Source of the DNA: a candidate division FCPU426 bacterium
GTDB lineage: Bacteria > Oederibacteriota > Muellerivitia > Muellerivitales > Muellerivitaceae
Direction of reading: 5' to 3'
NCBI GenBank assembly: GCA_963847625.1
Contig: CAWKAR010000055.1
Coordinates: 1 to 35,866 of the forward strand
DNA length: 35,866 nt
The translations under genes were made by a program, and so were the position numbers. The notes under the pieces are model-generated. The model worked only from the letters and a program-made list of their open reading frames with translations, did not search any database and was not told where the DNA came from. Below are positions 1 through 18,244 of this stretch, piece by piece; positions within the stretch are counted from its first letter, which is position 1; each line of letters begins with the position of its first letter.

Positions 1-177
1 ACCCACCGGCCATATCAGAATAATCACTCTGTCGGAACACAGGGATGGGGTTTGGTACGGCATTGTCCTTGGCTCCCGGCCGAATACGGGTGAATTGCGA
101 AAAAGCCGGTACGGCAAGGAAGAGGATGGACAAATCATGCAAACCAAAAAGTTAAAGCGGTTATTAATTGAGTTCAT
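1..177 (-). CDS. 5' part of a probable exported-protein cassette gene, running off the left edge; apparent 1-nt frameshift near 134
   Basis: GGAGG RBS and ATG at 177 just after array site 1. MNSINNRFNFLVCMI continues as signal-peptide-like LSILFLAVPAFSQ only after a frame change. Confidence 0.5.
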   Translation of the reverse strand, partial: MNSINNRFNFLVCMICPSSSLPYRLFRNSPVFGREPRTMPYQTPSLCSDRVIILIWPVG

Positions 178-197
178 TTCACCTCCTCGTTTTCCCT

Positions 198-225
198 TGT
201 CCATGAAGGGTCCCCGTCGTGGACA
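198..225. repeat. 28-bp cassette boundary site 1 (11-6-11)
   Basis: tgtccatgaag-ggtccc-cgtcgtggaca, 7 bp after the stop codon of 233..919. Confidence 0.9.
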
Positions 226-232
226 GACAAAT

Positions 233-919
233 TCACTTTTTTTGTAATAAATATTTCTTTTTAGTCCAATTAATTCCATCCCAATGAAAAATCCAAGATT
301 CGACAATATCCTCGTTGGTCTTGGCACTTGTGGTTATGTCGTCCAAGATTATGTCGCTTTTTGTTTTTTTGCTAGGGGTCAAAAAATAAGAGCCATAAAG
401 GGTTCTGATTTTTTTCGTTGAAAGATCAATGTCTAAGATCATCAACTTGGGATAGCCTGCGTAACGCCCGTTTCCTGTCACGGCATGTTGCACGTAAAAT
501 CGATAATTGTTTTCATTTATTTTTTCTAAGAAATGATGCCCATCTCCGCCGTTCGTGTTGGAAGTTCCAATGTTATAAATTCGGAATGAAGGTTTCGTAT
601 CGATCAAATAATTTCGACTACAGCCAAAAGGATCACATAAGTAATTTATTTTCAGAAAATAACACCTTTCATCCAACTTCATTATGTCCGGACTTGCTTT
701 AATCGTTTTAGACCCACTTCCCTGATCCCCGTCCACTTCTTTGCAGAATTTTTTGGCTATCTCCTTTATTTTTAAATACGTATTTTTATTTGAAGTATCA
801 GTTGCTATGGCAGGCGGAATTGCAACAGGAGCAAGGGTGGTTACTTTAAAAAAATCCGCATGCCCACTCAGAGAGGTCGAGAAAAACATAAGGAAACAAA
901 TAGTTCCAATTTTTTTCAT
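233..919 (-). CDS. hypothetical exported protein (cassette)
   Basis: 228-aa AT-rich ORF with N-terminal signal peptide and AAGGA RBS, lying between sites 1 and 2. Confidence 0.8.
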   Translation of the reverse strand: MKKIGTICFLMFFSTSLSGHADFFKVTTLAPVAIPPAIATDTSNKNTYLKIKEIAKKFCKEVDGDQGSGSKTIKASPDIMKLDERCYFLKINYLCDPFGCSRNYLIDTKPSFRIYNIGTSNTNGGDGHHFLEKINENNYRFYVQHAVTGNGRYAGYPKLMILDIDLSTKKIRTLYGSYFLTPSKKTKSDIILDDITTSAKTNEDIVESWIFHWDGINWTKKKYLLQKK

Positions 920-947
920 TTTAATCCTTTAAGCCAACTGTCCATAT

Positions 948-975
948 TGTCCACGCTGGGTCCCCATCGTGGACA
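948..975. repeat. 28-bp cassette boundary site 2
   Basis: tgtccacgctg-ggtccc-catcgtggaca, 7 bp after the stop codon of the DinB gene. Confidence 0.9.
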
Positions 976-982
976 GCCCCGC

Positions 983-1441
983 CTAGCAATTCCGTTTGTA
1001 TTTCAAGTTCAACATCGTTTGAAGGGAACCGCGATGGTGAATTTCATGGTCCAAACCACCACGAACCAGAATAAGCCATTTACTAACTTTCCCCATTTTT
1101 TCCCAATCATCGACTTCTTGGATCAGTTCGTCATCCGACATTTTCCTAAGGAATTCGGATTTCTTCCGCCCCAAATTCTCGAATTCTAAAAGGTAGTGGT
1201 CCCAATCTTCAGGTTTTGCATCGCCCGGATGGATAACAGCTCTCGGAATGTTCTTTTGGTTACTGAGAATGGCCATATTCCATTTATCGGCGTCAATCAA
1301 ATGCTTCAAAAGGTCCACAAAACTCAATTGGTTGGGAGCGGGACTCCAACCCCGGTCTTCCGGGGCTACTTTTTTGAATCTTTTTAAACTTGATTCCCGG
1401 ACCAATTCCGAGAATTGAGCAAGTCTTTCACCCTCGGTCAT
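983..1441 (-). CDS. DinB/YfiT superfamily protein (cassette)
   Basis: SFVDLLKHL and DHEIHHRGSL motifs. GGGAGG RBS places the start at ATG 1441; the longer predicted start lies inside site 3. Confidence 0.85.
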   Translation of the reverse strand: MTEGERLAQFSELVRESSLKRFKKVAPEDRGWSPAPNQLSFVDLLKHLIDADKWNMAILSNQKNIPRAVIHPGDAKPEDWDHYLLEFENLGRKKSEFLRKMSDDELIQEVDDWEKMGKVSKWLILVRGGLDHEIHHRGSLQTMLNLKYKRNC

Positions 1442-1460
1442 TTTAAATGCCTCCCTGCAT

Positions 1461-1488
1461 TGTCCACGACGGGTTCCCTTCGTGGACA
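1461..1488. repeat. 28-bp cassette boundary site 3
   Basis: tgtccacgacg-ggttcc-cttcgtggaca, 5 bp after the stop codon of the antitoxin. Confidence 0.9.
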
Positions 1489-1493
1489 ATGAA

Positions 1494-1793
1494 CTAGCGT
1501 ATTTCTGAGATTAGTTCCGGATGGGATTTAAGAATTCGAATTAACTTTGAGGCGGAACCGCTGGGCCGTCGGATTCCCTGTTCCCAATGTTCAACAGCAT
1601 TAGGACTTGCACCCACAACACCCGCAAAACCGACCTGGGTCAGATGCAAAGCCTTGCGGATACCCTTCACTTCCTGGGCAGTGGCGGGTTTTTGCCGGTA
1701 GCTTTCCCGCATCCCGTGGAGTTTCTTGCCTTTTTTGATCTCAATAGCCTGCTTGAGGCTCTCACGCATTAGTTGAAAATCTTTGTCATTCAT
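1494..1793 (-). CDS. HigA-like XRE HTH antitoxin
   Basis: IRKALHLTQVGFA...WEQGIRRPSG; overlaps the toxin stop codon by 4 nt. Confidence 0.85.
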   Translation of the reverse strand: MNDKDFQLMRESLKQAIEIKKGKKLHGMRESYRQKPATAQEVKGIRKALHLTQVGFAGVVGASPNAVEHWEQGIRRPSGSASKLIRILKSHPELISEIR

Positions 1794-2143
1794 TTCGATT
1801 TACCCCCTTTTTTCCCCTTGGCCAAGGCCTGACGTAAATCCTTGACGAGGATTTTTTCCTGCTCAGTCGTAAGATCAGGAGCCTTTCGTTTATCAATTAT
1901 AAAAAAGAGGTAAATGTCGTCGGGCTTATCGTAAAAGTACCATACCCGATAACCACCACTTTTCCCTTCCGGCCTTACGGTTGAGGCAATACGCAACTTA
2001 TGAATCCCGCCGCCTAAATGCACACCGCCATTGGGGTTATTGTTTATGGCTTCTTCAATGGCTACTTGCAAACCCTCCTCGCGAATGGCGTCTATTAATC
2101 TTGAGTAGATAGGTGACTGAATGAAATGTAACTGTTCCATCAC
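1790..2143 (-). CDS. RelE/HigB-family toxin
   Basis: GGIHKLRIA...GKSGGYRVWYF motif, toxin-first order. Confidence 0.85.
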   Translation of the reverse strand: MMEQLHFIQSPIYSRLIDAIREEGLQVAIEEAINNNPNGGVHLGGGIHKLRIASTVRPEGKSGGYRVWYFYDKPDDIYLFFIIDKRKAPDLTTEQEKILVKDLRQALAKGKKGGKSK

Positions 2144-2165
2144 CCGTCCTTTCTGTTACTCCTAC

Positions 2166-2193
2166 ATTGTAGGACTTCCCAGGAGATAGTCAA
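2166..2193 (-). promoter_or_regulatory. sigma70-like promoter of the TA cassette with palindromic operator
   Basis: TTGACT-N16-TACAAT on the minus strand; palindrome CCTACAATGTAGG overlaps the -10. Confidence 0.65.
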
Positions 2194-2223
2194 GATCCCT
2201 CCGAAAACTACCGTAAGAGGGTG

Positions 2224-3015
2224 GTCGGGTAGACCTGGACAGTTGCCCACCCAGGCCCCCCACAGATCCGGACATGCGTAATTGACGCATCCGGCTCCTC
2301 AAGCTACGGATTCGCTGTCGGGTGGTCGATCGTTTCAAAGCCCGATCTCCCTCCCGCACCTGCGCCTACCTTCGCTATCCGTTGGTCTTTCGTTAAGAGG
2401 AAACCCGGGGCTCAGTGTCCCCGTCCTCTTTCACCCCAGCGGTTCCGTGTCCTGTCCTCCCCTTCGCTCCACAGGGTCCTTTCAGGTCAGTTCCCCTGCT
2501 TCTTCGCTACTGTGGGATTCTCCGAGTTCTTGATGTCCTTTTCTTTCGAAGGTTTATTGTGTTCACCTTCCGGGATACCGCTACGACGTTTCCTTTTCGC
2601 TCCAGAAGAGGCGAAACGTTGCCTTCCTCTGACCGGGGTTATTCGGGTTACGGCTTCCCCAACCGTGTTTATTTTGCGGGAACATCAAGACTTCCCAAGT
2701 TCCTGGGGAACCCCCATGTGCACATGCCCTGCTCTACGACCGCGGTGGACTTGAGGACCCGGCCTTACTTCGGTCTCTCAGGTTTTGCCTTCCGTTCGTG
2801 GAACGACGTCGGCTTCCACAATTCCCTTTTCGAGGCTCAATCACACGGCCTGCGCACTCCCTGTTTACGCTTTGCGGCAACAGTTACCCGTTGGCTCGCA
2901 CAAAACTCGGTTCCGACTGCTGGCCAGCTTTGTCGGACAGGATTGTTTACCTGCTGGGTTCCTCTACAAAGTTTCAGTTATTACACTTCCTCCTTGTCCA
3001 AGCTTCTTGGCGCAC
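2224..3015 (-). mobile_element. group II intron lacking its RT ORF (792 nt), inserted into array site 4
   Basis: 5' GTGCG; domain V GAGCCGGATGCG...CGCATGTCCGGATC; domain VI ending CCCGAC; RT N-terminal remnant TKDQRIAK. Excision restores an intact 28-bp site. Confidence 0.9.
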
Positions 3016-3041
3016 TCCACGAGGGGTCCCCATCGTGGACA
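3016..3041. repeat. 28-bp cassette boundary site 4 (first 2 bp displaced to 2222-2223 by the intron)
   Basis: tg|tccacgagg-ggtccc-catcgtggaca. Confidence 0.9.
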
Positions 3042-3091
3042 ATTTCTTATCGACCGAGCTCGCGAGCTCGTCCGGGACACACCGCAGGGCA

Positions 3092-4408
3092 CTACTTCAT
3101 CATTTTACTCAAGCGCTGAAGGTCAATCGGACGCGAGCGAACAAGAAGAAGAACGCCTTCTTCGGTAAAGCTCTCCCTCAAGATTTTCATTCTCGAACGC
3201 ATTTCTTTGATGGCGCCTTGGGCTTTATAGGGGACGAGAATCTCCTTTTCAATCATGTCTTTCTCGAAAAAATGAATAATGCGTTCACTAACGCTCTGCA
3301 TGTCCTCAGGGCTACGAGTCGAGGTTAAAACCGCGTCCGGATACTCCCGCCTGAGATCCTGCTTCTGCTCTTCGCTCAAGCAGTCGGCCTTATTGAGGAG
3401 AAGAAGATATGGCGTTTTGTCGGCGCCAATCTCACCTAAGACTTCCCGAACTACCGCGAGCTGGGAACGAAAGTTGCGGTCAACGGCATCCACCACGTAA
3501 AGAAGCAGGGTTGCGCCGCGGGCCTCATCCAGCGTGGAGCGGAAGGACGCCACCAGATCGTGTGGAAGCTTGTGGATAAAACCCACCGTATCGGTGATCA
3601 GGATTCTCGGCTGGGTCTCTGGTTGTAGGGCGCGTATCGTCGTATCCAGGGTCGCGAAGAGCTTGTCCTCCACCAGGACGTCGCTGCCGGTCAGCGCCCG
3701 CATGAGGGATGATTTTCCGGCATTCGTGTAGCCCACGAGCGCGGCGCCGAGCAGTTCCGCGCGTTTCATCCGGCGTTGCTCTTCTTCTTTTTGAACCGCT
3801 TGTAACTCGTGCCTCAGCTCAGCCAGGCGGTCGCGGACTTTGCGTTTTTCGGTCTCTATGATGGTTTCCCCGGATCCTCGTCCCGACTGGCGTTCCTTTC
3901 CTACTCCCGTATCCCTGAGACGGGGAGCCTGATAGGTTTGGCGCGCGATATCGACCTGGAGCCGCGCGGCCCGGGTCTTCGCGTGCCGGTTGAAAATTTC
4001 GATAATCACCCCGGTCCGATCGAACACCGGAACCCCCAAAGCCTCTTCGACGTTGCGAATCTGGGACGGGCTCAAATCGCAGTCAAAAACCACCATCTCG
4101 GGTCCTTCGGGAGTCGAGGCTGTGACTGGCGACTGTTGTGGCGTTTCGGAGTTCCCCTTGACCCTATCCCGGTAGCCCTTTCCGCGGGTGAGGTGGGCGA
4201 GCTCCATCAGTTTTCCCTCACCGACCATAGTGACCCCTGATGTGTTGGGTTGCCGCTGGGACATAGTGCCGGTCACCTCGTATCCCAGGGTCGTCACCAG
4301 CCGTTCGAGCTCGATCAACGATTCCGTCGCTTCGTTATCAGTCACCTTGGGCGTTCTGACCGAAAACAGGAGTGCTTTCGGATGTGTGTTTGTCTGCGGG
4401 GATTCCAT
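3092..4408 (-). CDS. hflX: GTPase HflX (ribosome-splitting factor)
   Basis: GYTNAGKSS, DKLFATLDTT, DTVGFI, NKAD motifs plus N-terminal HflX domain. Confidence 0.95.
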   Translation of the reverse strand: MESPQTNTHPKALLFSVRTPKVTDNEATESLIELERLVTTLGYEVTGTMSQRQPNTSGVTMVGEGKLMELAHLTRGKGYRDRVKGNSETPQQSPVTASTPEGPEMVVFDCDLSPSQIRNVEEALGVPVFDRTGVIIEIFNRHAKTRAARLQVDIARQTYQAPRLRDTGVGKERQSGRGSGETIIETEKRKVRDRLAELRHELQAVQKEEEQRRMKRAELLGAALVGYTNAGKSSLMRALTGSDVLVEDKLFATLDTTIRALQPETQPRILITDTVGFIHKLPHDLVASFRSTLDEARGATLLLYVVDAVDRNFRSQLAVVREVLGEIGADKTPYLLLLNKADCLSEEQKQDLRREYPDAVLTSTRSPEDMQSVSERIIHFFEKDMIEKEILVPYKAQGAIKEMRSRMKILRESFTEEGVLLLVRSRPIDLQRLSKMMK

Positions 4409-4577
4409 TTCCAGCCTCGATTGAATTCTATTAACTTTTTTATCTACTCGGTTTACATCAGCAAAGATAGCATGTATGGGCCAGCAACCTACGTAGTAGC
4501 TTTGATCAATAGTAGCTGATCAAAATAACGCGGGTTGCTCCTGGTAAGGAGCCTATCCGCATACGGAGGGCTGACCC

Positions 4578-5684
4578 ATGGGAAATAATAGCACGGTGGT
4601 AGGGCTGGATGTTCATAAGGAAACGATCACGATTGCAGTTTTAAGGCCCGACAAGGATCGTCCTGATCCCTCGGTTACGGTTGAAAATCAGCCATCAATC
4701 ATTGAAAAGAAAGTACGGGAACTTAATCGCCGCCATGCCCCACTGGAATTCGTTTATGAGGCTGGGCCTGGGGGATTTGCTTTGTATAGGCAGATTACCC
4801 AATTGGGACACCCTTGTGCGGTGATTGCGCCCGCATGGATGCCGATGAAACCTGGGGACCGAGTCAAGACGGACCGAAAGGACGCAGAAAAGCTGTCTTG
4901 GTATTGGCGCATGAGGGATTTGAAAGAAGTCCGGGTACCCACGCCCGAAGAAGAATCCGTGAGGGATTTGCTGCGTGTCCGGGAAGATGTTCTCGCAAAC
5001 CAGTTGAGAGCCCGTCATCGGTTATTGAAATTCCTGCTTAGGCAAGGCCGGATTTATCGGGGTGGCAAACACTGGACCCAAGCCCATAGGGAATGGTTGA
5101 GACACCAGAAGTTTGAGCTGCCAAATCTCGTAAAGACCTATGAAGCGAATTACCGAATTTTGGCTGAGATTGACGTGCACTTGGCTGATTTGAATTGTGA
5201 AGTTGAATTGCTGGCACAAGACGAGAAATATCGAATTGCTGTCAGCTATTTGAAATGCCTGAAAGGCGTTAACACACTCACGGCCATGACTTTATTAGCA
5301 GAAAGCGGAGATTTCAGGCGGTTTAAAAACGCCCGCAGTTATATGCGATATACGGGAATGGTCAGTTGGGAAGACAGCACCGGAAGCCATGTTTACCGGG
5401 GCGGGATTGTCAAATCCGGAAATGCCCATTTGAGGCGAGTGCTAGTCCAAGGGGCATGGACCTATCAGCTACGAAGCCTTGGGAGTCCAACACTCGCTAA
5501 ACGGAGAAAAGGTTGTCCCCCGGAAGTTATACATTTAGCACGAAAAGCTGATGAACGTTTGCATTTGAAGTTTCGGCGGATGGTAAGCCGAAACAAACGT
5601 TCCCAGGTGGCGGTAGTGGCCATCGCACGGGAATTGGCTGGCTTTATCTGGGCGATTGGACAGATGATCCCATCCGATCAGTAA
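4578..5684 (+). CDS. IS110-family DEDD recombinase/transposase
   Basis: GLDVHK, YEAGPGG, KTDRKDA, GNAHLRRVL, AIARELA motifs. Confidence 0.95.
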   Translation: MGNNSTVVGLDVHKETITIAVLRPDKDRPDPSVTVENQPSIIEKKVRELNRRHAPLEFVYEAGPGGFALYRQITQLGHPCAVIAPAWMPMKPGDRVKTDRKDAEKLSWYWRMRDLKEVRVPTPEEESVRDLLRVREDVLANQLRARHRLLKFLLRQGRIYRGGKHWTQAHREWLRHQKFELPNLVKTYEANYRILAEIDVHLADLNCEVELLAQDEKYRIAVSYLKCLKGVNTLTAMTLLAESGDFRRFKNARSYMRYTGMVSWEDSTGSHVYRGGIVKSGNAHLRRVLVQGAWTYQLRSLGSPTLAKRRKGCPPEVIHLARKADERLHLKFRRMVSRNKRSQVAVVAIARELAGFIWAIGQMIPSDQ

Positions 5685-5956
5685 TAGATCCGATGAGAAG
5701 AAAAAGAAGGACGAGCTCTGATTTCAGGAGCGTGGCGCGGCACGGAGAACCCTCGACGACCCCTTGTGCAATGAAGTCTTATTTCATGACGCACGGACAA
5801 AGATCGAGGCAGCTCCCGACGACAGGTCATCATGCGTCCCTGCCCTTTGGGGTAATACGCGAATATCAGTTTGATCAACCGTCGGAAATGGCTACGCTCT
5901 TGGAATCAGGGCTCTGTCGTGCTGGTCCGTGAAAAGACCAACACCCTAGAATCTGA
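5685..5956 (+). ncRNA. candidate bridge/seek RNA region
   Basis: About 270-nt non-coding segment between the transposase and the right IR. It contains ATATCAG (5863-5869), matching the element-end core. The RNA itself is inferred from family knowledge. Confidence 0.55.
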
Positions 5957-6009
5957 AGGTTGACTGGCCCATACATATCAGGGGTTAGGCCACCCTAATC
6001 CATTTTCCT

Positions 6010-6036
6010 TGTCCAATCCAGTTCCCGTAGTAGACA
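6010..6036. repeat. degenerate 27-bp head site of the array (attI analogue?)
   Basis: tgtccaatcc-agttcc-cgtagtagaca; right arm 9/11 identical to site 1. AAGGAG RBS at 6044-6049 (minus) precedes a TTG at the site edge. Confidence 0.65.
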
Positions 6037-6100
6037 AAACTTTCTCCTTAAATCTACACGATTTTACCCCATTTTGAAGGATATGGGGTGAGCGTTCCAC

Positions 6101-6324
6101 CTGCGTTGAGGCCTATTATCCGCCCTCACCCACCAGGTGAGGGGCGTTAGTTGATAATGCCAACCCATAAAAAGTTGGTACAAACCGAGACGCACGGTTA
6201 GGGTGTGCCGATTTATTAAGGGAATCGGCCATGCCCCTGGGGGGGCCGGGGGATCGCCTTCCTGCGTCGAGACCACAAGTCGAAACGCATGACTTGGGTG
6301 TGCTGGTTCAATAAAGGAACCAGC
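6101..6324 (+). repeat. hairpin repeat cluster (module D with module B nested, then a second D)
   Basis: Close similarity to 22008-22271. Confidence 0.8.
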
Positions 6325-6390
6325 CGCCCGGGCCAGGGTGGGTACAGGGCAGGGGTCCTCCCCTCCCTGCGGCACATGATCAGGTTCTTT

Positions 6391-6579
6391 TCAGGGTGAA
6401 TCTGAAAATGCTTTAACTGCTTTCAAATAGTTGCCCATAACAGCCTGAAAGTAAGGGGAGCAGGAAATTTTCCCGCAAGCGGCCAAGGGTTCCTCATTAG
6501 GATTTTCAATTTTGAATTCCCTTAAACGATCTTCCGAAACTTCAAGCTCTTCCCCGCAAATCCAGCAATTCATTTTCAT
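6391..6579 (-). CDS. small Cys-rich (Zn-finger-like) hypothetical protein
   Basis: CWIC...CGKISC; RBS; abuts the upstream ORF. Confidence 0.65.
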   Translation of the reverse strand: MKMNCWICGEELEVSEDRLREFKIENPNEEPLAACGKISCSPYFQAVMGNYLKAVKAFSDSP

Positions 6580-6580
6580 T

Positions 6581-6748
6581 TCACACCCCTTTGCCTTTAA
6601 GATTTAAGGGGAAAAATTGAAAGATTTTGTTATAGCGGTTCCACTTAGCCAGTTCCTCAAGAAATTCTTCCTCGGAGTAACAGTTCATCCGATGAATTTT
6701 CGATTTACCGGTCAATAAAGTGATGGCCTTGTAGGTGAATCTTTTCAT
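6581..6748 (-). CDS. small hypothetical protein
   Basis: GGAGG RBS before ATG 6748; operonic spacing. Confidence 0.6.
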   Translation of the reverse strand: MKRFTYKAITLLTGKSKIHRMNCYSEEEFLEELAKWNRYNKIFQFFPLNLKGKGV

Positions 6749-6762
6749 ATGTCCTCCACTGG

Positions 6763-7011
6763 TTAACATGCCGTTCTCTCCTTTAAAAAATTACTTTTGG
6801 CGTCAAAAACCTCCCGGATGTGCGGGGCGTTTTTCTCGGCCTCGTCGTATTGGGTTATTAAGACTTCCTGGCCGTCGATCACCTGGGTTTCCCCTTCCGT
6901 GCTTCCCTCGATGTCGTGGTCAATAACCTTGAAATCAACCCCCCCGAAATCAGAAATCACGTTTTGAACCAGTCCACCTTCAAGGTGGATAACAATTTTC
7001 GGTATTTTCAT
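6763..7011 (-). CDS. hypothetical protein, paralogous to the C-terminal half of 13275..13742
   Basis: KIVIHLEGGLVQ...DHDIEG versus KLVVVIEGGNVQ...DYDCEG. Confidence 0.75.
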   Translation of the reverse strand: MKIPKIVIHLEGGLVQNVISDFGGVDFKVIDHDIEGSTEGETQVIDGQEVLITQYDEAEKNAPHIREVFDAKSNFLKERTAC

Positions 7012-7022
7012 TTCTTACCCCC

Positions 7023-7125
7023 CTGCGTCGAGGCCACAAGCCGCGACGCACGATTCGTTGGTCTTTATCGCCCTTGGGCTGAAAGCCCAACGGGTGGATA
7101 TGCCGGTTCCATAAGGGAACCGGCA
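7023..7125 (+). repeat. module D hairpin repeat with internal insert
   Basis: ctgcgtcgaggccacaagccgcgacgca...tgccggttccataagggaaccggca. Confidence 0.75.
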
Positions 7126-7128
7126 CTA

Positions 7129-7425
7129 TTAAATTTCGTATTTTTCCGCAAAGTTTGAAAGGGATTCTGCGGCGGCGGCGCATACGTCTAAAGCCCGTGC
7201 GGTGGGTAATCCGACAAGCATTTCCCCCCCTGCGTCAAAATCCAGTTTCGTGAAAACCGTTTCGGCCTGGTCGGTTAAGTAGTTTGTTAATGCCCCTGCC
7301 ACCTCCCCAAGGCCGTGCTTTTTTAAGAGGTACGCCAAAACGTCGTATACCTCATAAGCTTCAAGGGCAAATCCTTTAAACTCCTTCTCGGTTTCCTTCT
7401 CCGGTCCCAACAATACAACTTTCAT
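7129..7425 (-). CDS. hypothetical acidic protein
   Basis: 98 aa, AGGAGG RBS. Confidence 0.7.
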   Translation of the reverse strand: MKVVLLGPEKETEKEFKGFALEAYEVYDVLAYLLKKHGLGEVAGALTNYLTDQAETVFTKLDFDAGGEMLVGLPTARALDVCAAAAESLSNFAEKYEI

Positions 7426-7461
7426 AAAGCCTCCTTTTTTTTTGCCCTTACGGGCGTTTAA

Positions 7462-7734
7462 TTAACTTTCCTGATGGATAAAATCCAATTGGCCCATAAA
7501 TTCATGGGGTTCGTTGGTTTCTTTGTAAAATTGGTAATCGGCTTCAAAAACATCCTCACAGATCAAGCAAAAGCCCGTTTCCGGGTCGAGCGGAAATATT
7601 TTTTCCCCGCATGACATACAAAACCCATTACAAGCGGGGCAAGGCTTCGCTTCTTTTTCCTCGTCCCATCCGTGGTTACATTTCCAGGGAGAAAAGGGAA
7701 GGTGGATTTCAACTTTTTTAATTTCCGGGTTCAT
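7462..7734 (-). CDS. acidic Cys-rich hypothetical protein
   Basis: CPAC, CMSC and CLIC motifs. Confidence 0.65.
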   Translation of the reverse strand: MNPEIKKVEIHLPFSPWKCNHGWDEEKEAKPCPACNGFCMSCGEKIFPLDPETGFCLICEDVFEADYQFYKETNEPHEFMGQLDFIHQES

Positions 7735-7744
7735 GATTTCCCCC

Positions 7745-8230
7745 TTAAGCCAAAAGGCCGGTTTGGCGGAAAGAAAAATGGCCTTCGTGGGTTACGATTA
7801 CGTGATCGTGCACGGTCAAACCAAGCGCACGGGCGGCGGTTGAAACCTGGCGGGTCAATTGCTGGTCCCCTTCGGACGGTTCGAGGCTTCCGGCTGGATG
7901 GTTATGGGCCAAAATCAAGCCAGTGGCGTTAAGCATCAAAGCTTTTTTCAGGATTTCGCGGGGATAGCAAGCCGTATGGTCCACCGTTCCGCCCTGGGCT
8001 TCGCATTCAAGGACGTGGTTTCTGTGGTCGAGGTACATGGTCAAGAAAGCTTCTTTATCCATGCCTCCGATGTATTTCTTGAAATATCCAATGGCGTCTT
8101 CCGGGCCTGCGACAACCGGACCCCTTTTATAATCCGCCCTTGCCTCCGCCCATGAAATCGGCGGAACCGTCGGCGGGATTTGGAACATCGTTTCCAGATT
8201 CATTTCTAACTGCTTTGCCCTTTTCTTCAT
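7745..8230 (-). CDS. radC: RadC-like JAB/MPN domain protein
   Basis: YPREILKKAL, AHNHPAGSLEPSEGD, HDHVIV. True start is probably ATG 8230, after a GGGGAG RBS. Confidence 0.9.
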   Translation of the reverse strand: MKKRAKQLEMNLETMFQIPPTVPPISWAEARADYKRGPVVAGPEDAIGYFKKYIGGMDKEAFLTMYLDHRNHVLECEAQGGTVDHTACYPREILKKALMLNATGLILAHNHPAGSLEPSEGDQQLTRQVSTAARALGLTVHDHVIVTHEGHFSFRQTGLLA

Positions 8231-8250
8231 GTGACCTACTCCCTTTGATT

Positions 8251-8760
8251 TATTTGAGGAGAGAGCACCCTCCGGGTGCGCCCCCTCACAAAATCCTTGG
8301 GGGCGCAGACGGAGCACAAAGAGGTGTTGGTTATGGAAAACCGAGTCCGGGGGGAAGTGCGTCGTTGGTTTAAGCATTATTGGGGGAAAAGACAAAACAT
8401 CCGTGAGGCCGGATCAGCGAGGAACGAAGCCCGGCCGTTTTGGCTTTTAGGCGCCGACCGACCCCAACGGCGAAGCCGCCCCCGGATTGATTTTCTTCCA
8501 GGTTGTCTTTCGACGTGGGGGTTCCGGGGGGATCTACCACCGGGCTAGGGATGGGCACCTCGTCATCGCACACAAGGCGGTGACGGCGGTTTGGTTGGGC
8601 AAACAGCATTGAGGCTGTTTGACAATGGGGAAGGGTCTGTTCCCTTCCCCTGGGGGGCTCCGGGGGATCGCCACCCGGGCTACGAGAGGATTTAAGGGAG
8701 AGGGTTATCGCTCCCTTTTTAAAAATATTAACGAGGCCTGGCCATAGGGAAGATTACACG
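8251..8760 (+). repeat. conserved upstream repeat (modules A+C) ahead of radC
   Basis: Module A (about 185 bp) recurs at 10540, 14111 and 21238; module C recurs at 10941 and 14444. Confidence 0.9.
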
Positions 8761-8863
8761 GACGCTGTTTTGCGGACGGCGAAACTTCTTCAATCCCGTG
8801 AGGGTGGCCAGGCCGAGGTAAGGGGCCTATGTCATGCCAACGTGATTCTTGCACTTAAAAACA

Positions 8864-8895
8864 AAAAGCCTCCCGGCCTATGGCCGGGAAGCTTT
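8864..8895 (-). terminator. intrinsic terminator
   Basis: cccggcc-tat-ggccggg stem with T tract on the minus strand, after the TA pair. Confidence 0.7.
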
Positions 8896-8916
8896 ACTCT
8901 AGGGATGAGATGTGTT

Positions 8917-9234
8917 TTAGGCGCTCTTTTTACTTTGGGCAAGTTCCTTCGCGAAAACAATCCGCACTCCAAAGGCATGAAGAATCTTTTCAAGACTGGA
9001 AAGGGTCGGGTTTCCTTTTTCGGAAAGCGTGGTATAGAGGGCTTCCCTGGCCAACTGTGTTTCTTGGGAAAGTTTTTTCATCCCCCCCAGGGCGTCGGCC
9101 ACGTTCTTTAGGGCTCTTAAAAAGTATTTAAAGTCCCCAGTTTCCCAAGCGGCGTTGATGTATCCAATCCGCCTTGCTGGTTTTTTCAATTCTTCGAATA
9201 AATATTCTTTGTGGTCAACTAATCTGAATTTCAT
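8917..9234 (-). CDS. addiction-module antidote protein (HI1420-like HTH)
   Basis: GGMKKLSQETQLAREALYTTLSEKGNPTL. Confidence 0.85.
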   Translation of the reverse strand: MKFRLVDHKEYLFEELKKPARRIGYINAAWETGDFKYFLRALKNVADALGGMKKLSQETQLAREALYTTLSEKGNPTLSSLEKILHAFGVRIVFAKELAQSKKSA

Positions 9235-9569
9235 TTTAAACTCCTTTTGAAAGCCGTCCAAAGTTTAGTAGCTTTCCTTATGTTGCTGTCCTGGTTGTCT
9301 TTTTCGCCCCCGCAAACCACTACGATAATGGCTCCCTTATGGAAACCATAATAAACCCGATACCCTTTTCCGTAATGAATCCTTAATTCCCAAAGGCCCC
9401 CAGTATTTGGCAAGTCGTGGTGATCGCCAAAATTCCCGTCCACCATCCTGTCAACCGCCGTCTGAATGCGTTCCTTGGCGGTATTATCCTTCAAACGACG
9501 GTGCCACTCTTTGTAAAGTTCTTTCCCATCGACTTCTAAAAATTTCACTTCAAAAGGGTGGTTTTCCAT
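9231..9569 (-). CDS. addiction-module killer protein (HI1419-like RelE/ParE)
   Basis: GNFGDH, LWELRIHYGKGYRVYY, GGEKDNQ. Confidence 0.85.
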   Translation of the reverse strand: MENHPFEVKFLEVDGKELYKEWHRRLKDNTAKERIQTAVDRMVDGNFGDHHDLPNTGGLWELRIHYGKGYRVYYGFHKGAIIVVVCGGEKDNQDSNIRKATKLWTAFKRSLK

Positions 9570-9632
9570 GCCTAAACCAAGTGTAATAATTATATTACTC
9601 ATTTTCAAGCCTTTCCTTCGTTAAAAATTCCA

Positions 9633-10520
9633 CTAAGCTACCTCCTTTTCTTTTTCCTCTGAAACCGGCTTCAAGAGAAAATCCACGGCTTTTTGGGCCT
9701 GGGTAACTGCGGTCATAAGGGCTTTTGGTTCATCCTTTAATCCCTTAATCCAGGAAGCGACATAAGCGGCGTGGTTGGTATGGTAGGGGATGCCCACGTG
9801 GGCGCAAAGGACGGCGGCTCCGAATTCCGCCACAAGTTCCTCGGCGGCGTAGGGATCGGAACCAAATTTGCTTTGAAGATTCCGGTTAAGCCTCTTGGGT
9901 CCGCCTACCCAATGGCATAGCTCGTGAAAAAAAACCTCATAAAATCCTTCGGTCGTCTTAAAGGATTCCTTGAAGGGTAGGGTGATGGTATCGGTGGCCA
10001 CCGTGTAAAAGGCCTTGTCCCTTAACTGGTCATAAACGATATTGGCCCCCGATTCCTTAATAATCCGGTCGGCTTCCTGGTTGTTGGCGACCCGGTTGGG
10101 GGTAATTTTCTCCTTGAGGTGGTCCAGGCCTTCCAACTGGTCCAGGTTGAAAACGTAGTGAAGGCGCACAAAAGGAAAAGTCTCCTTTTTGTTTTTCCCG
10201 TCCGTTTCCTTCTCGTCGGAAACCTTCGTTTTAATTTCAAAATAAATAATCTCGGTCCCCTCCTGGCCTTTTTTCACACGGCCCCCGAGGTTCTTGCATT
10301 GTAAAAAAGTCATCCATATTGGGGATGAATAGCCTTTAACCTGGCGCTCATAGCCCAAAAGTAAAAGGTTCATTCCCTGGTAAACGTGTTTGGATGAACC
10401 ATTGACCGATGGAATAAAGAACCAAGGTTTTTCCCAGGGCATGACCCCGGTTTCCATGTCCTTAATGATTTTGTCGGTAACTTCCTCGATCAGATTTGAA
10501 AGCCTTTCTTTAGTACTCAT
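9633..10520 (-). CDS. ardC: antirestriction protein ArdC (ssDNA-binding domain plus zincin domain)
   Basis: PWEKPW, YQGMN, WMTFLQ, FHELCHW, YAAEELVAE, HAAYVASW. Confidence 0.92.
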   Translation of the reverse strand: MSTKERLSNLIEEVTDKIIKDMETGVMPWEKPWFFIPSVNGSSKHVYQGMNLLLLGYERQVKGYSSPIWMTFLQCKNLGGRVKKGQEGTEIIYFEIKTKVSDEKETDGKNKKETFPFVRLHYVFNLDQLEGLDHLKEKITPNRVANNQEADRIIKESGANIVYDQLRDKAFYTVATDTITLPFKESFKTTEGFYEVFFHELCHWVGGPKRLNRNLQSKFGSDPYAAEELVAEFGAAVLCAHVGIPYHTNHAAYVASWIKGLKDEPKALMTAVTQAQKAVDFLLKPVSEEKEKEVA

Positions 10521-10539
10521 TTTTTCTACTCCTTTTCTT

Positions 10540-11122
10540 TATTTGAGGAGAGAGCACCCTCCGGGTGCGCCCCCTCACAAAATTCTTGGGGGCGCAAACG
10601 GAGCACAAAGAGGTGTTGGCTATGGAAAATCGAGTCCGGGGGGGAAGTGCGTCGTTGGTTTAAGCATTATTGGGGGAAAAGACAAAACATCCGTGAGGCC
10701 GGATCAGCGAGGAACGAAGCCCGGCCGTTTTGGCTTTTAGGCGCCGACCGACCCCAACGGCGTTTATCCACCCTCGCCCACAAGGCGAGGGGTGAAGGTT
10801 GACAATGCCAACTCAATAAGAGTTGGTGACGCCGCCCCCGGATCGGTTTTCTTCCACGTTGTCTTTCTCTCTGCGTCGAGGCCTCAAGCCGAGATGCGTG
10901 GTTTGGGTGTGCCGGTTCCATATAAGAACCGGCGCGCCGCGGGGGATCCGGGGGGATCTACCACCGGGCTAGGGATGGGCACCTGGTCAATCGCTCACAA
11001 AGCGATGACCAAGCTTTGGTTGGGCAAACAGCATTGAGGCTGTTTGACAACGGGGAAGGGGCTGTTCCCTTCCCCTGGGGGGGCTGGGGGGATCGCCACC
11101 CGGGCAATGGGAAGGTTACACG
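10540..11122 (+). repeat. conserved upstream repeat (modules A+B+D+C) ahead of ardC
   Basis: Segmental identity with the 8251, 14111 and 21238 copies. Confidence 0.9.
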
Positions 11123-11243
11123 ATTGCGTTGGTTATGATTGTTAAATTTTTTGAAGGATTCTGACTAGTTTATTTTCATCCGAATCTGGATTCCTGGAAA
11201 TCTTCATGCTTAAATTATTTAACGCCGAATCAAGGTAAATAAA

Positions 11244-12206
11244 ATGCACACACAAGACCTTAGTAGTTGGTTGCATACCCACGTGTTCAATAATGAAAAC
11301 AAGCACGCCGAGCGGAGCACCCGCGTGGTTGCATCCATTACAGCAATTATGATGATCATCGAGATATGGGCTGGTTGGTGGTTTAATTCCATGGCATTGT
11401 TCGCTGACGGCTGGCACATGAGTTCACACACGATTGCCATCGGCCTGAGCGCACTTGCTTACGTAGTCGCCCGTAGGCACGCGAATGATGGGAGATATGC
11501 ATTTGGCACGTGGAAGATCGAGGTATTAGGCGGGTTTACCAGCGCTGTTTTGCTAATGGTCATCGCGGCCTATATGGTTCTGAGTTCCCTCGAAAACCTT
11601 CATACACCACGCCCTATCCGTTTTGCGGAGGCCATTCCCGTAGCGGTAGTGGGTCTCTTCGTCAATATCATATGCGCCCTCATTTTGGGAAAAGCTCATC
11701 ATGACGGCCACCACCATACGGAAGGACACGATCATCACCACCATGATTTAAACCTCAAATCCGCCTACGTTCACGTTATGGTGGATGCAGGGACTTCCAT
11801 GCTTGCCGTGCTGGCTTTATCCGGTGGCATGTTTTTGGGTTGGGTTTGGCTGGATCCCGTCATGGGAATTGTTGGCGCGACAGTGGTGGCTCTTTGGGCA
11901 TGGGGGTTAATCAAGGAAACCAGCCAAGTTTTGTTGGACCGCGAAATGGACAGCCCCGTCGTGATTGAAATCAGGGATACCATCGAAAAACATCCCCAAT
12001 GGTCGGAATCCACCCGGATTTCTGACCTCCATGTTTGGCGCGTTGGAAAAGAAAATTATTCCTGCGCTATAAGTTTGGTTACCGACGACGTTAAAATGAC
12101 GCCCCAATCTGTTAAAGAAATACTTCAACAACATGAGGAAATAGCCCATATCACTGTTGAAATCAATCAATGTCCACACCAGGTTAAATCTGTTTCTTAT
12201 GTATGA
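11244..12206 (+). CDS. dmeF: CDF-family Co/Ni efflux transporter (DmeF-like)
   Basis: SMALFADGWHM, FGTWKIEVLGGF, His-rich loop, AYVHVMVDA, DLHVW. Confidence 0.88.
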   Translation: MHTQDLSSWLHTHVFNNENKHAERSTRVVASITAIMMIIEIWAGWWFNSMALFADGWHMSSHTIAIGLSALAYVVARRHANDGRYAFGTWKIEVLGGFTSAVLLMVIAAYMVLSSLENLHTPRPIRFAEAIPVAVVGLFVNIICALILGKAHHDGHHHTEGHDHHHHDLNLKSAYVHVMVDAGTSMLAVLALSGGMFLGWVWLDPVMGIVGATVVALWAWGLIKETSQVLLDREMDSPVVIEIRDTIEKHPQWSESTRISDLHVWRVGKENYSCAISLVTDDVKMTPQSVKEILQQHEEIAHITVEINQCPHQVKSVSYV

Positions 12207-12335
12207 AGCTATACCTCACTCCTTTTTTCGCACTTCAAAAAAAGAGAACTGATAATGGGAAAGCTACATGGCCGCCGATGTTGCGGACGGCGAGGTTTCC
12301 ATCCTTTCGGTGTAGGGGGTGACAAAACGGACAAA

Positions 12336-12421
12336 GGGGGTCCGGGGGAAACGCCTTCCTGCGTTGAGACCACAAGTCGAGACGCGAGGTTTGGGTGTGC
12401 CGGTTCCATAATAGAACCGGC
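12336..12421 (+). repeat. module D hairpin repeat
   Basis: ctgcgttgagaccacaagtcgagacgcg...gccggttccataatagaaccggc. Confidence 0.8.
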
Positions 12422-12455
12422 CCCCGGTGCTTATGCCCGGAAATTAACAAGCCGC

Positions 12456-12860
12456 CTATTCGGCAGATTGTTCCTCGGCCAAAGTAAAAGTCTGGTTTTT
12501 AATGTTTGCAAGCCAGTCCGCTAAAAATTCGTTTTGGCTCCTGAATTGGCGGGGGTCCTCCTTCCCGTCTGGGTATACCTCCCAATACCCCAATGAATTT
12601 TGGAAATGAATTGCAAGGGCCGTTTTATTTTCGGGGTATAGATGGATTTCCATATCCGGATCGGGGACTAAATCCCCGTTCAGTTCATAATAATGGGTTA
12701 AGGAAATGTGATTCTTGGAAAGGCATTCCAGGTGCAAGTCCATGTAACCATTGGCCTTAAATTTCATGGTCCGGCCCGACCGGCTGGCCCATTCGGTTAT
12801 ATCCTTTCCGGCCAATTCCGACAAAGCCTTGTAATTCAATTCCGGGATTTTCGAATCCAT
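12456..12860 (-). CDS. DUF6908/DUF1249-like protein
   Basis: ISLTHYYELNGDLVPDPDMEI...NEFLADWLANI. Confidence 0.7.
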   Translation of the reverse strand: MDSKIPELNYKALSELAGKDITEWASRSGRTMKFKANGYMDLHLECLSKNHISLTHYYELNGDLVPDPDMEIHLYPENKTALAIHFQNSLGYWEVYPDGKEDPRQFRSQNEFLADWLANIKNQTFTLAEEQSAE

Positions 12861-12883
12861 ACTTCCTCCTTTCTAAAATCCTA

Positions 12884-13075
12884 CTATTCAATTGTTTTCA
12901 CTTCCTCAATGTCATTGAGTTTTTTCATTAAATTTTGAAAATACCGGGTCATTTCTTTTTGGTAGACGGTTTGAGAAAGGATTTCAGGCTGGTAATTCTC
13001 CCAAAAAGCGACCGCCCGGCAAGCATAAGAAACAATCGCGCTAAATTGTGGAGAAGGAATTGCGGAATATTTCAT
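12884..13075 (-). CDS. hypothetical protein
   Basis: GGAGG RBS; start overlaps the upstream stop codon. Confidence 0.6.
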   Translation of the reverse strand: MKYSAIPSPQFSAIVSYACRAVAFWENYQPEILSQTVYQKEMTRYFQNLMKKLNDIEEVKTIE

Positions 13076-13266
13076 GGTAAAACCTCCCTCGTGAAATCCT
13101 CTAAAAATCTCCATCCGTTACTTCGAGCGTGAAGTTTTGCCGACTTGACAGCCGACGACTTCGTGTTGCCTTCAATCCTGGCCATTTCCAAAATCGGGCC
13201 GAAATTATTCACCCGTTTTTCATCCGTTGTCGCGGGCCGGTAAAAGTAAAACTCAAATGTTTTCAT
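13072..13266 (-). CDS. hypothetical protein
   Basis: Operonic spacing. Confidence 0.6.
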   Translation of the reverse strand: MKTFEFYFYRPATTDEKRVNNFGPILEMARIEGNTKSSAVKSAKLHARSNGWRFLEDFTREVLP

Positions 13267-13274
13267 TTCCCGCC

Positions 13275-13742
13275 TCACTGCATGGCGTTGCGAAAGAAAC
13301 TCTTAATTTCTCTTGGTTCTGGTGATGCTTCTCCCCAATGGCGGACGTAAGCCAGTTCATAAGTCTTTTTGTTGTTGTTCCCAAATTGGAGAACCCTTTT
13401 AACCTCGGCCCGGTCGGCCCCCTCACAGTCATAATCGACTTTGCAAATCTTGACCCCTGGGCGGTTTGCCATGATTTCCTGGACGTTTCCCCCCTCAATG
13501 ACGACAACCAACTTGGTTTCCGCCTTCGGTTTCAAAACCGAAAGGATGTTTTCGGCCAATTCCAAGGCCTCCGCCCTGGATATCTTTAGGCTGATCGGGT
13601 CGGTTTTCCCGGCTCGGCTCGAAGAAACCGAAAGGTTAAGATTCCCTTCAATGTCCTTGAAGCAATCCACCTTCCGGGGAATGAAATAACCATTTCTTCC
13701 CCTGGCCCAGCCTGTCCCTTTCAAAAGCAATTCTTTAAACAT
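13275..13742 (-). CDS. hypothetical two-domain protein
   Basis: AGGAG RBS before ATG 13742; C-terminal domain shared with 6763..7011. Confidence 0.7.
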   Translation of the reverse strand: MFKELLLKGTGWARGRNGYFIPRKVDCFKDIEGNLNLSVSSSRAGKTDPISLKISRAEALELAENILSVLKPKAETKLVVVIEGGNVQEIMANRPGVKICKVDYDCEGADRAEVKRVLQFGNNNKKTYELAYVRHWGEASPEPREIKSFFRNAMQ

Positions 13743-13753
13743 GACTTCTCCTT

Positions 13754-13984
13754 TCAAAGTGAATGAATGAGGGTTAAAAATTCGGGTTTGGAAGAAGGGG
13801 AAAGGGCGCACGCCACGGACTCGAATAAAAGGCTTTCGGTTAGGTTGTCCTTCACGTCCACTGTTTGAAGGTGGTCAAGGTCCTGAATCTCGTAAAAGTA
13901 ACCTTGTAGATTCTTGCCAACGTGAATTTCAAAATTCCCCATGATGGGAAAGCTGACTAACTTGAAAGCTGTCGTGGTATTCAT
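13754..13984 (-). CDS. hypothetical protein
   Basis: AGGAG RBS; operonic. Confidence 0.6.
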   Translation of the reverse strand: MNTTTAFKLVSFPIMGNFEIHVGKNLQGYFYEIQDLDHLQTVDVKDNLTESLLFESVACALSPSSKPEFLTLIHSL

Positions 13985-13996
13985 GCGCCCTGCTCC

Positions 13997-14092
13997 TTAA
14001 AGCTCCCGGCCTTCGATAAAAAGCATTTCGATAGCCCGGTCCAATTCTTCTTCCGGTATTCCTGAATCCTTGACTTCCTCTTTTTCATCCAT
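13997..14092 (-). CDS. 31-aa acidic peptide directly after module A
   Basis: AAGGAG RBS; MDEKEEVKDSGIPEEELDRAIEMLFIEGREL. Confidence 0.55.
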   Translation of the reverse strand: MDEKEEVKDSGIPEEELDRAIEMLFIEGREL

Positions 14093-14110
14093 CTTTGTTT
14101 CTCCTTGATT

Positions 14111-14686
14111 TATTTGAGGAGAGAGCACCCTCCGGGTGCGCCCCCTCACAAAATCCTTGGGGGCGCAAACGGAGCACAAAGAGGTGTTGGCTATGGGAAA
14201 TCGAGTCCGGGAGGAAGTGCGTCGTTGGTTTAAGCATTATTGGGATTCCGGCAGGCCATGTTTTAGGCCGGATAAGACGAGGAACGAGGCCCGGCCTGGC
14301 TTGCCGGAAAGGCGATGACCGGTCCCAACGGCGTTTATCCGTCCTCGCCCACAAGGCGAGGGACGACGGTGGATAATGCCAACTCAATAAGAGTTGGTGA
14401 CGCCGCCCCCGGATCGGTTTACTTCAACGTTGTCGTTCGTCGTGGGGGTTCCGGGGGGATCTACCACCGGGCTAGGGATGGGCACCTCGTCACTACCCAC
14501 AAGGCGGTGACGGCGGGTTGGTTGGGCAAACAGCATTGAGGCTGTTTGACAACGGGGAAGGGTTACTTCCCTTCCCCTGGGGGGCTCCGGGGGATCTCCG
14601 CCCGGGCTATGGGTGTGTTGAGGGACAGGGTTATCTCTCCCTTTTTAAAAATATTAACGAGGCCTGGCTATAGGGAAGGTTACATG
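14111..14686 (+). repeat. conserved upstream repeat (modules A+B+C)
   Basis: Identity with the other copies, including a tail shared with 8700-8760. Confidence 0.9.
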
Positions 14687-14755
14687 GCTAAAGGCCGGCG
14701 AGCCTTTTTCAAAACGTTCACGTCTGGGTCGAGACAAAAAGCACTATGAAAAAAG

Positions 14756-14793
14756 AAAAAGCCCCACTGGTTTATAAACCGTGGGGCTTTTTT
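14756..14793. terminator. bidirectional intrinsic terminator
   Basis: aaaaagccccac...gtggggcttttt. Confidence 0.75.
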
Positions 14794-14825
14794 CTACGCC
14801 GATTACAATTTACATTTGGAATCGG

Positions 14826-15056
14826 TTATTTATTCTTAGGCAACACCAAGGGCGAAACCTGCTTCGCTCCCCTCTTCGCTGTTCCACTGATCTTGCGGAC
14901 GGGTTTGGCCTTTTTAGTATGGCGACCCATGGCATGGTCCTTTTCATGGTCCAAGACCCACTGGGGTTTTTCTTTGCTCTGGGTGGCTTGCGCCCAGGAT
15001 GCCGTCCCTGCCGCCGCCGTGAATAGAATGACCGCTGCTAAAATGATCTTTTTCAT
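14826..15056 (-). CDS. small basic exported protein
   Basis: Signal peptide MKKIILAAVILFTAAAGTASWA; GGAG RBS. Confidence 0.7.
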   Translation of the reverse strand: MKKIILAAVILFTAAAGTASWAQATQSKEKPQWVLDHEKDHAMGRHTKKAKPVRKISGTAKRGAKQVSPLVLPKNK

Positions 15057-15120
15057 GTTTTAACTCCACAGATTTGATTTGGATTGCCTTCCACATTCAA
15101 AATTTGAATCATTTCGTTAA

Positions 15121-16194: not shown

Positions 16195-16379
16195 CCGCTT
16201 TGACGCCTTTTTATTACCTTCAATAGTATAGCGTCGAAGGTGGAGGTTTTATTCCATGGTTTCACTGATTAAATAAAAAATCTTTATGGGGTAAGAACAG
16301 GTCTTTTACAAGCCAACCCCCCCGGAATACCCCTATTCCGGCGCATCTTCGTTCATTCCGGCATAATATGAAGCCGGGA

Positions 16380-18200: not shown

Positions 18201-18208
18201 AAAAATAA

Positions 18209-18244
18209 TAAAAGCCCGGTTCCGGAAGGAGTCGGGCTTTTTTA
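18209..18244. terminator. bidirectional intrinsic terminator
   Basis: aaaagcccg...cgggcttttttt between convergent genes. Confidence 0.8.

Follow-up and report, generated by a model that had tools for sequence, protein, structure and literature searches.

The closest described relatives of the system reported here are integrons and attC clusters without an integron-integrase (CALINs), the dif modules of Acinetobacter, large serine integrases, and small serine resolvases and invertases. The system was found on contig C55 of the host genome G000, a candidate division FCPU426 bacterium of the family Muellerivitaceae; the window analysed is the entire contig, 35,866 bp in length. Positions 1-6050 hold genes separated by direct repeats of a 28-bp site, and we consider it moderately probable that they belong to an integron-independent cassette system with a short serine recombinase as its most likely enzyme.

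Like integrons and CALINs, as these appear in the part of one account that was available (PMC9024848), the arrays are co-oriented, consist of one-gene cassettes, carry toxin-antitoxin (TA) pairs, are shuffled, can stand without a nearby enzyme and have group II introns at their sites. They differ in that no integron integrase (IntI) above cut-off was found in five genomes, and in that the site is conserved in sequence, lacks hairpin covariation and R boxes, and appears to be exchanged centrally; the enzyme proposed for it is of the serine type, and its gene runs convergently with the array instead of divergently. The dif modules of Acinetobacter, served by XerC/XerD, likewise have 28-bp double-stranded sites, a central crossover, accessory genes with TA pairs and an enzyme in trans (PMC13141974, seen in part). 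Here, in contrast, there is no dif-like sequence, the two arms are alike and the host keeps a separate dif-like site; and whereas dif modules alternate C/D and D/C sites in the same partial source, the sites here are direct repeats (401 of 409 neighbouring pairs).

Large serine integrases (LI/A118, SPbeta, Bxb1, phiC31, and CcrAB of the staphylococcal cassette chromosome, SCC, elements) share catalytic and recombinase domains, fold and an orienting central dinucleotide with the candidate enzyme. It lacks their zinc ribbon and coiled coil, its cargo would be single genes and not the element itself, and where they use distinct attP and attB sites of 40-50 bp, one near-symmetric 28-bp site is present here in dozens of copies. 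Small serine resolvases and invertases recombine at res site I, hix or gix, crossover sites of 26-28 bp whose inverted arms flank 2 bp, as here, but have a helix-turn-helix (HTH) DNA-binding domain, accessory sites or enhancers, and two or few sites in cis. No description of such a system was found in the literature searched, most subscription journals and supplements lying outside that search. Integron-like in its working, the system departs from integrons in IntI and attC and from pdif in sequence and orientation, and its putative enzyme is without a domain that defines large serine integrases.

A 28-bp site separates the genes of the array

The array comprises the following features (minus strand is the gene strand of the cassettes).

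1-177, minus strand: 5' part of a cassette gene, running off the contig end (sequence and translation)
198-225, minus strand: 28-bp site 1, central GA in gene-strand reading
233-919, minus strand: cassette with a 228-aa open reading frame (ORF), N-terminus signal-peptide-like by eye; no Pfam or NCBIfam family
948-975, minus strand: 28-bp site 2
983-1441, minus strand: cassette with a DinB_2-superfamily protein of 152 aa (PF12867), not DNA polymerase IV
1461-1488, minus strand: 28-bp site 3, centre AA rather than GA
1494-2193, minus strand: TA cassette, with HTH antitoxin at 1494-1793, RelE-type toxin at 1790-2143 and sigma-70-like promoter at 2193-2166
2224-3015, minus strand: ORF-less group II intron, 792 nt long, interrupting site 4 behind its base 26 (Rfam RF02005 at 2730-2946)
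3016-3041, minus strand: first 26 bases of site 4, the last two lying at 2222-2223
3092-4408, minus strand: hflX cassette (TIGR03156 above cut-off)
4462-5988 (approximate), plus strand: IS110-family element in the head of the hflX cassette, transposase at 4578-5684
6010-6036, minus strand: first (head) site of the array, 27 bp, with a central one-base deletion

With at most three arm mismatches, the arm motif has four matches in the window, at 198, 948, 1461 and 3014; the chance mean is 0.01, and none of 100 shuffles reached four. The motif search bore out the repeats of the original prediction (198, 948, 1461 and 2222/3016), the fourth split as it had stated. Its degenerate head copy at 6010 is a site of 27 bp, one central base short, whose ortholog in a related genome (G001) is the full 28 bp. 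The upstream half of this head site is common to related elements and the downstream half to hflX cassettes; because the bases after 6010 match the heads of hflX cassettes elsewhere, it is taken as the upstream site of the hflX cassette. Gaps from stop codon to site are 7, 7, 5 and 50 bp, so that the 5-7 bp predicted for three sites held and the fourth stands further off. In the heads of several unrelated cassettes (C19:110970, C34:88614, C39:42633 and C59:12595) the site is followed by a common motif, AAATGGAT(A/T)A; in the window it lies at 5990-6009, directly before the IS110 insertion point. Contigs C61 and C55 of G000 were considered as one array; their orientations agree, but the contig ends do not overlap.

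The site is common and co-oriented across the family

A weight matrix trained on G000 (threshold at least 20 bits) found 50 sites on 19 of the 63 contigs of that genome and one match in one shuffled genome. When searched as a pattern with one mismatch, the site was present in 21 of 24 genomes of the family and in the single sister-family genome, and in none of 15 from other families of the phylum; the reversed motif gave no match in the same genome set. An order-wide pattern search was positive in 27 of 30 family genomes, with up to 81 matches each. The pattern also matched 119 metagenome stretches; viral contigs gave no match. Most unique sites (468 of 617) follow a same-strand stop codon within 250 bp, at a median gap of 22 bp; 26 others come after the start of an opposite-strand gene, 58 have no ORF in that place and 65 lie too close to a sequence end. 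Neighbouring sites at most 6 kb apart are co-oriented in 401 of 409 pairs, with a median spacing of 816 bp. Genome-wide scatter of the motif had been named in advance as speaking against a cassette system. By the letter, the 50 copies on 19 contigs go some way towards such scatter, yet most lie in arrays of accessory genes and are not like terminators or repetitive extragenic palindromic (REP) elements.

Rare sites with a reversed centre (eight discordant pairs) were observed in or beside arrays (L035:3820, L080:15948, L247:5493) and are possible inversion products. On a larger scale, the sites of G002 change orientation at the Xer gene (about 329 kb on C1) and again at dnaA (1.46 Mb on C2), as though arrays followed replication. 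A general orientation by replication fits G002 but was rejected, as only 16 of 22 clusters of G000 agree by GC skew and two clusters of G001 disagree.

Geometry of the site and evidence for central exchange

The consensus of the site is TGTCCACGACGGG-GA-CCCGTCGTGGACA. In place of the 11-6-11 division into arms and core that had been proposed, the arms pair over 13 bp and only the two central bases are asymmetric: the palindrome breaks at positions 14-15 alone, where 587 of 611 sites have GA and 12, as at 1461-1488, have AA. Of the sites, 11% deviate at position 16 and 5% at position 17, more than at positions 12-15, and variation at 16-18 is linked to a marker in the right arm (odds ratios of 3.2-5.2). 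Head sites and sites next to a recombinase gene keep one fixed, often deviant half. A layout of 13-2-13 is that of serine recombinase crossover sites. The central dinucleotide of such sites is described in the available part of PMC11722253. A 2-nt stagger at GA would be consistent with this geometry and with the flank data below, which bracket exchange only to about positions 11-18.

Hairpin partners are absent from the 30 column pairs that covary most strongly, and compensation between the arms is close to what chance predicts, apart from pair 4/25 (7 observed, 1.8 expected). The site is therefore read as acting as double-stranded DNA, unlike the attC hairpin; attC sites are variable in sequence and conserved in structure, according to the part of PMC9024848 available. 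The absence of R boxes and of likeness to dif had been noted in the original prediction. Both observations hold, since no R-box pair 35-150 bp apart occurs on either strand of positions 1-6100 and the dif-like site of the host is a different one. No peak of a -10 hexamer was seen at any gap after the right end of 592 sites, and hence neither a hybrid promoter nor a promoter element at fixed distance. None of the full sites in the window was listed as terminator-like.

At many sites one flank is near-identical between copies and the other unrelated. Where the upstream flank is shared (25 families), positions 1-10 differ little (0.41 against a background of 1.31), whereas positions 19-28 differ about as much as the background (2.40 against 2.57). 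Where the downstream flank is shared (20 families, after removal of four intron families), positions 19-28 barely differ (0.25) and positions 1-10 differ more (0.64). These comparisons show that the upstream and downstream halves of the site travel with their own flanks. Because each arm does so, exchange appears to be central, firmly at or before position 18 and less firmly after position 10. Exceptions to this arm tracking occur on both sides.

A comparison of cassette order among relatives, proposed with the original prediction, showed that the order differs and that the break falls inside the site. G001 shares the backbone of the window at 99.98% identity over 8145-12651 and at 97% over 6011-8150; there follow an intact head site and then unrelated DNA. 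The hflX cassette recurs in other genera at 83-94% nucleotide identity with different neighbours, as do homologs of the TA cassette in G001 and G011 at 80-82%, while the single-copy Xer protein of those other genera is only 65-75% identical. Cassettes of one to few genes are thus shown, from their sequences, to move between arrays, genomes and genera, and the cassette system as such is very probably real. Circles and empty sites were sought in sequencing runs: none of the 24 runs listed holds more than 14% of the words of the region, and the contigs of four runs covered it poorly. One apparent circle joint in the contigs of these four (225/947) was rejected, as it had only 28 letters on one side, the site matching itself, and is evidence neither way.

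A short serine recombinase gene adjoins some arrays

The window has no serine recombinase gene; contig C61 of G000 carries one. When ORFs around arrays were clustered, a serine recombinase stood tail-on to a site in three loci, and among the 60 largest clusters of the 1569 ORFs, not all of them annotated, there was no other recurring candidate. The short recombinase forms 19 clusters (68-100% identity), all of 275-283 aa, which constitute one clade in a quick tree (Shimodaira-Hasegawa-like approximate likelihood ratio test 99). It consists of PF00239 and PF07508, the catalytic serine of YxRVSS being kept (invariant YVRVSS), and all 19 members stop before the zinc ribbon and have no coiled coil. 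Among the best 120 proteins no long relative (at least 483 aa) exceeds 60% identity, the nearest being of 483-741 aa. The ratio of nonsynonymous to synonymous substitution was 0.04-0.16 in the 11 measurable pairs of 15, the other four being saturated. An AlphaFold model (mean pLDDT, the predicted local distance difference test, 79; pTM, the predicted template-modelling score, 0.51) has its best fold matches in complexes of the SPbeta, Bxb1 and phiC31 integrases.

In nine of 11 distinct short-type loci, leaving out two that run off contig ends, a site in the same orientation lies 8-34 bp from the 3' end of the gene; one of the nine is frameshifted and reads through the site. A convergent ORF of at least 150 aa is equally close to only 23 of 525 sites, and six of these ORFs are the short recombinase gene. 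The terminal site has been kept through 68-86% protein divergence while the neighbouring cassettes changed. No site lies within 1.5 kb 5' of the gene, the nearest 5' site at L089 being 6 kb away, and in the loci mapped the gene was not seen between closely spaced sites. G006 and G022 retain 3' stubs of the gene joined to a site, and G019 and G046 hold copies that are truncated or broken. The gene adjoins that of ArdC in G045, G042 and G018 and a RadC fragment on C61 of G000; the G045 locus repeats the gene order of the window, with the recombinase in the position that a cation efflux gene occupies in the window. In the flanking DNA examined, none of six full-length relatives has a site at its 3' end. 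Several full-length relatives (L341, L331, L335, L337 and others) have their stop codon in tRNA-like sequence.

The original prediction, a cassette shuffling system on a mobilizable element with its recombinase outside the window, agrees with the differing cassette order and with the gene on C61. It had expected a tyrosine recombinase acting on an 11-6-11 core, and this part found no support: a profile built from the genome's own enzymes revealed no tyrosine recombinase in array loci L021-L095, and the enzyme with the closest linkage is a large serine recombinase in truncated form. G000 has 18 PF00589 matches, and none of them has a site above 9 bits within 4 kb. For IntI (TIGR02249) none of five genomes exceeded the cut-off (best 45 bits against 265); 14 control genomes likewise had none, so that this search had no positive control. 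An integrase family of seven copies was rejected as the cassette enzyme, since it sits at tRNA ends behind an excisionase-like ORF. A single-copy Xer-like gene (G000 C60:99799) is present in 23 of 24 family genomes, in the one sister-family genome and in none of 15 others, a distribution that matches that of the cassette motif. All 12 Xer loci inspected (L116-L127) have a different, dif-like palindrome of the TATAA-N6-TTATA type directly before the gene; in G000 it lies at C60:100843, is present in one exact copy and shares no sequence with the cassette site. XerC and XerD models gave no match above cut-off among 14 proteins tested. The single Xer-like gene with its adjacent palindrome presumably resembles systems of the XerS or XerH type. 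The palindrome also resembles the arms in the pdif table of PMC13141974, as far as that source was available.

Proposed mechanism and alternative explanations

In the model that we favour, the serine recombinase of 275-283 aa, with its catalytic and recombinase domains, would bind each arm and cut at the GA dinucleotide. Lacking a directionality module, it would recombine any two sites with matching centres: direct repeats would yield excision, and the excised circle could integrate at any other site. GA would fix the orientation, so that arrays stay co-oriented. Site 3, with its AA centre, is predicted to be incompatible with GA sites and thus locked against the common type. The recombinase gene would have its end close to an array's last site, in many cases within the leading region (ArdC/RadC) of a conjugative element, and its product would act in trans on arrays such as that of the window. 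Genomes without the gene might, speculatively, hold orphan arrays that are reshuffled when a recombinase-bearing element enters; the arrays of such site-rich genomes may be orphans in the manner of CALINs, or may be served by a different enzyme. In the LI integrase, recognition of positions 9-11 falls to the recombinase domain and that of positions 16-24 (attP) or 11-19 (attB) to the zinc domain (PMC3783163, seen in part), and deletion of the coiled coil removes site selectivity (PMC5499577, seen in part). Since the outer half-site is thus recognised by the zinc domain and selectivity depends on the coiled coil, an enzyme without them would fit a 28-bp, direction-free site.

Several points weigh against this model. 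An intact short gene is present in only five of 32 genomes (G000, G002, G018, G042 and G045); it was not found in the site-rich G023 (36 matches), G011 (22), G016 (15) and G043 (16), G001 (14 matches) has a full-length relative only, and G011, which is 99% complete, has no PF00239 or PF07508 match at all. G018 keeps half a site, at L263 the site is 110 bp away and reversed, and the linked loci share one origin and are not independent. The crossover is firm only at or before position 18, left-arm tracking being weaker (0.41 against 0.64), and variants at position 16 are associated with left-arm changes too (odds ratio 2.8), decay confounding this test. No cassette circles were seen in the contigs of the four public runs, with their poor coverage of the region. 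Activity of the short recombinase on the site is a prediction, and that a zinc-domain-less enzyme would bind tightly enough is an assumption of the model. Removal of the coiled coil leaves the LI integrase inefficient in recombination between molecules (PMC5499577, seen in part).

A tyrosine recombinase, either a host Xer-like enzyme or another, might instead act in trans on an 11-6-11 site, as XerCD does on the Acinetobacter dif modules. The chief argument for this is the Xer-like gene, distributed as the motif is and present where the serine enzyme is missing; the 28-bp length of the site, the wide bracket of the crossover (about 11-18) and the sites of G002, which are directed from dnaA towards the Xer gene, agree with it. 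The same distribution is however expected of any marker of the clade, the palindrome at all 12 Xer loci is their own and unrelated, the seven-copy integrase family belongs to tRNA ends, and variation within the supposed 6-bp overlap is higher at positions 16-17 than at 12-15; we hold this explanation unlikely. It is quite unlikely, too, that the short recombinase is a passenger or parasite at array ends and that the work is done by another enzyme, one without a PF00589, PF00239 or PF07508 match or of the IS110 or HUH type. Several site-rich genomes do lack the serine gene, and two group II intron families exploit the site. Yet the gene has no 5' site within 1.5 kb and was not seen between closely spaced sites in the mapped loci, its terminal site has outlasted 68-86% divergence, its domain loss fits the size of the site, and the 60 largest ORF clusters, not all annotated, offered no other recurring candidate.

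Host homologous recombination or gene conversion between 28-bp repeats would need no dedicated enzyme. Such a repeat is about the minimal length for RecA, some pairs with a shared flank differ on the "wrong" arm, and L100 of G001 shares only the last approximately 120 bp of the antitoxin gene and the left arm, with the break inside the gene. Since the palindrome, the invariant centre, the first gain of a site by unrelated genes and the clean partition of the right arm (0.25 against 2.40) would all be left unexplained, we regard this as improbable. That the repeats are not recombination sites but operators, terminators or REP-like elements between accessory genes is very improbable: although the consensus could fold as a hairpin and some single sites follow ordinary metabolic genes, the flanks swap exactly at the site, which largely refutes the idea, and neither hairpin covariation, terminator-like full sites in the window nor a promoter element at fixed distance was found.

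Cassette cargo and inserted elements

The cargo named in the original prediction was largely confirmed, with hflX (the only copy found in G000), a RelE-type toxin with an HTH antitoxin, and a DinB_2 protein. Of the exported proteins that it listed, one complete ORF (233-919) looks exported by eye and no other does. The pair called HigBA is a RelE-type toxin with an HTH antitoxin, and its own promoter, at 2193-2166, is a consensus match only, of which the region has three against 4.9 in shuffles. Across arrays the cargo is diverse, with TA pairs, hydrolases, repeat proteins, oxidative-stress enzymes and many unknowns.

Both the group II intron that splits site 4 and the IS110 element beside hflX had been missed in the first reading. 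The intron scores 131 bits with RF02005 (threshold 49), begins with GTGCG, ends with AC and has a longest sense ORF of 48 aa. The loop of its exon-binding site 1 (EBS1) is complementary to the six site bases preceding the insertion point. It thus shows the features of group II introns, namely GUGYG and AY ends, domain I and V structure (domain V read by eye) and pairing of EBS1 with the intron-binding site (IBS1). Two further copies (L152, L154) have an identical 5' junction in a site. Two reverse transcriptase matches in G000 were considered as its mobilising enzyme and rejected, as the DNA flanking them does not resemble the intron. A further family of ORF-less group II introns, with atypical ends, starts at the downstream edge of 15 sites, which fall into three families (for example L053:8320-9120 and L053:10029-10830). 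Insertion of group II introns at attC is a known parallel (PMC7923331, seen in part). The IS110 element between hflX and the 6010 site is one of seven near-identical full-length copies in G000.

The conjugative backbone beside the array

The remainder of the window (RadC, ArdC, TA pairs, coupling protein and ParAB) is made up of parts of a conjugative element.

6064-28745, minus strand: conjugative-element backbone
7745-8395, minus strand: RadC
8917-9608, minus strand: TA pair
9633-10520, minus strand: ArdC
11244-12206, plus strand: cation efflux gene, in whose place a relative carries the short recombinase
24822-26717, minus strand: coupling protein
26717-28745, minus strand: ParB/ParA

Between the leading-region genes, at 6100-22300, lie families of structured repeats of 70-230 nt (for example 8240-8697, 10529-11122, 14100-14687 and 21221-21617), and related structured repeats occur upstream of the short recombinase gene on C61 and in G042 and G045. 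We assume that these leading-region repeats may be single-strand promoters. The element also contains a leucine-rich-repeat protein (15121-16194), and an IS1380-type transposase (PF13701) lies at the contig end (34419-35798). Elements of three recombinases, resembling recombinase-in-trio (RIT) elements, were observed at L149:4590-7716 (G001) and at C20:38768-42101 of G000; that of G001 interrupts the radC of the element it has in common with the window.

Implications

Integrons are the textbook route for stockpiling and reordering single genes, and tools of the IntegronFinder type see only IntI and attC. They would miss a convergent system that pairs a serine recombinase with a short double-stranded site, which suggests that cassette arrays are undercounted. 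The system makes testable whether a large serine recombinase can function without zinc and coiled-coil domains, and how cassette systems originate. Engineering, too, could gain a compact tool in an enzyme of 276 aa whose 28-bp site has a programmable dinucleotide.

For the family itself, we put at about even the chance that the arrays represent a third, independently evolved platform of gene capture. A tRNA-targeting large serine integrase would have lost its zinc and coiled-coil module and become a direction-free cassette recombinase; riding in conjugative leading regions, it would reshuffle dozens of resident chromosomal arrays on entry and sustain a family-wide cassette pool, with two group II intron lineages targeting its site. 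By way of the arrays, genes such as hflX pass from genus to genus, with a nucleotide identity of approximately 90%.

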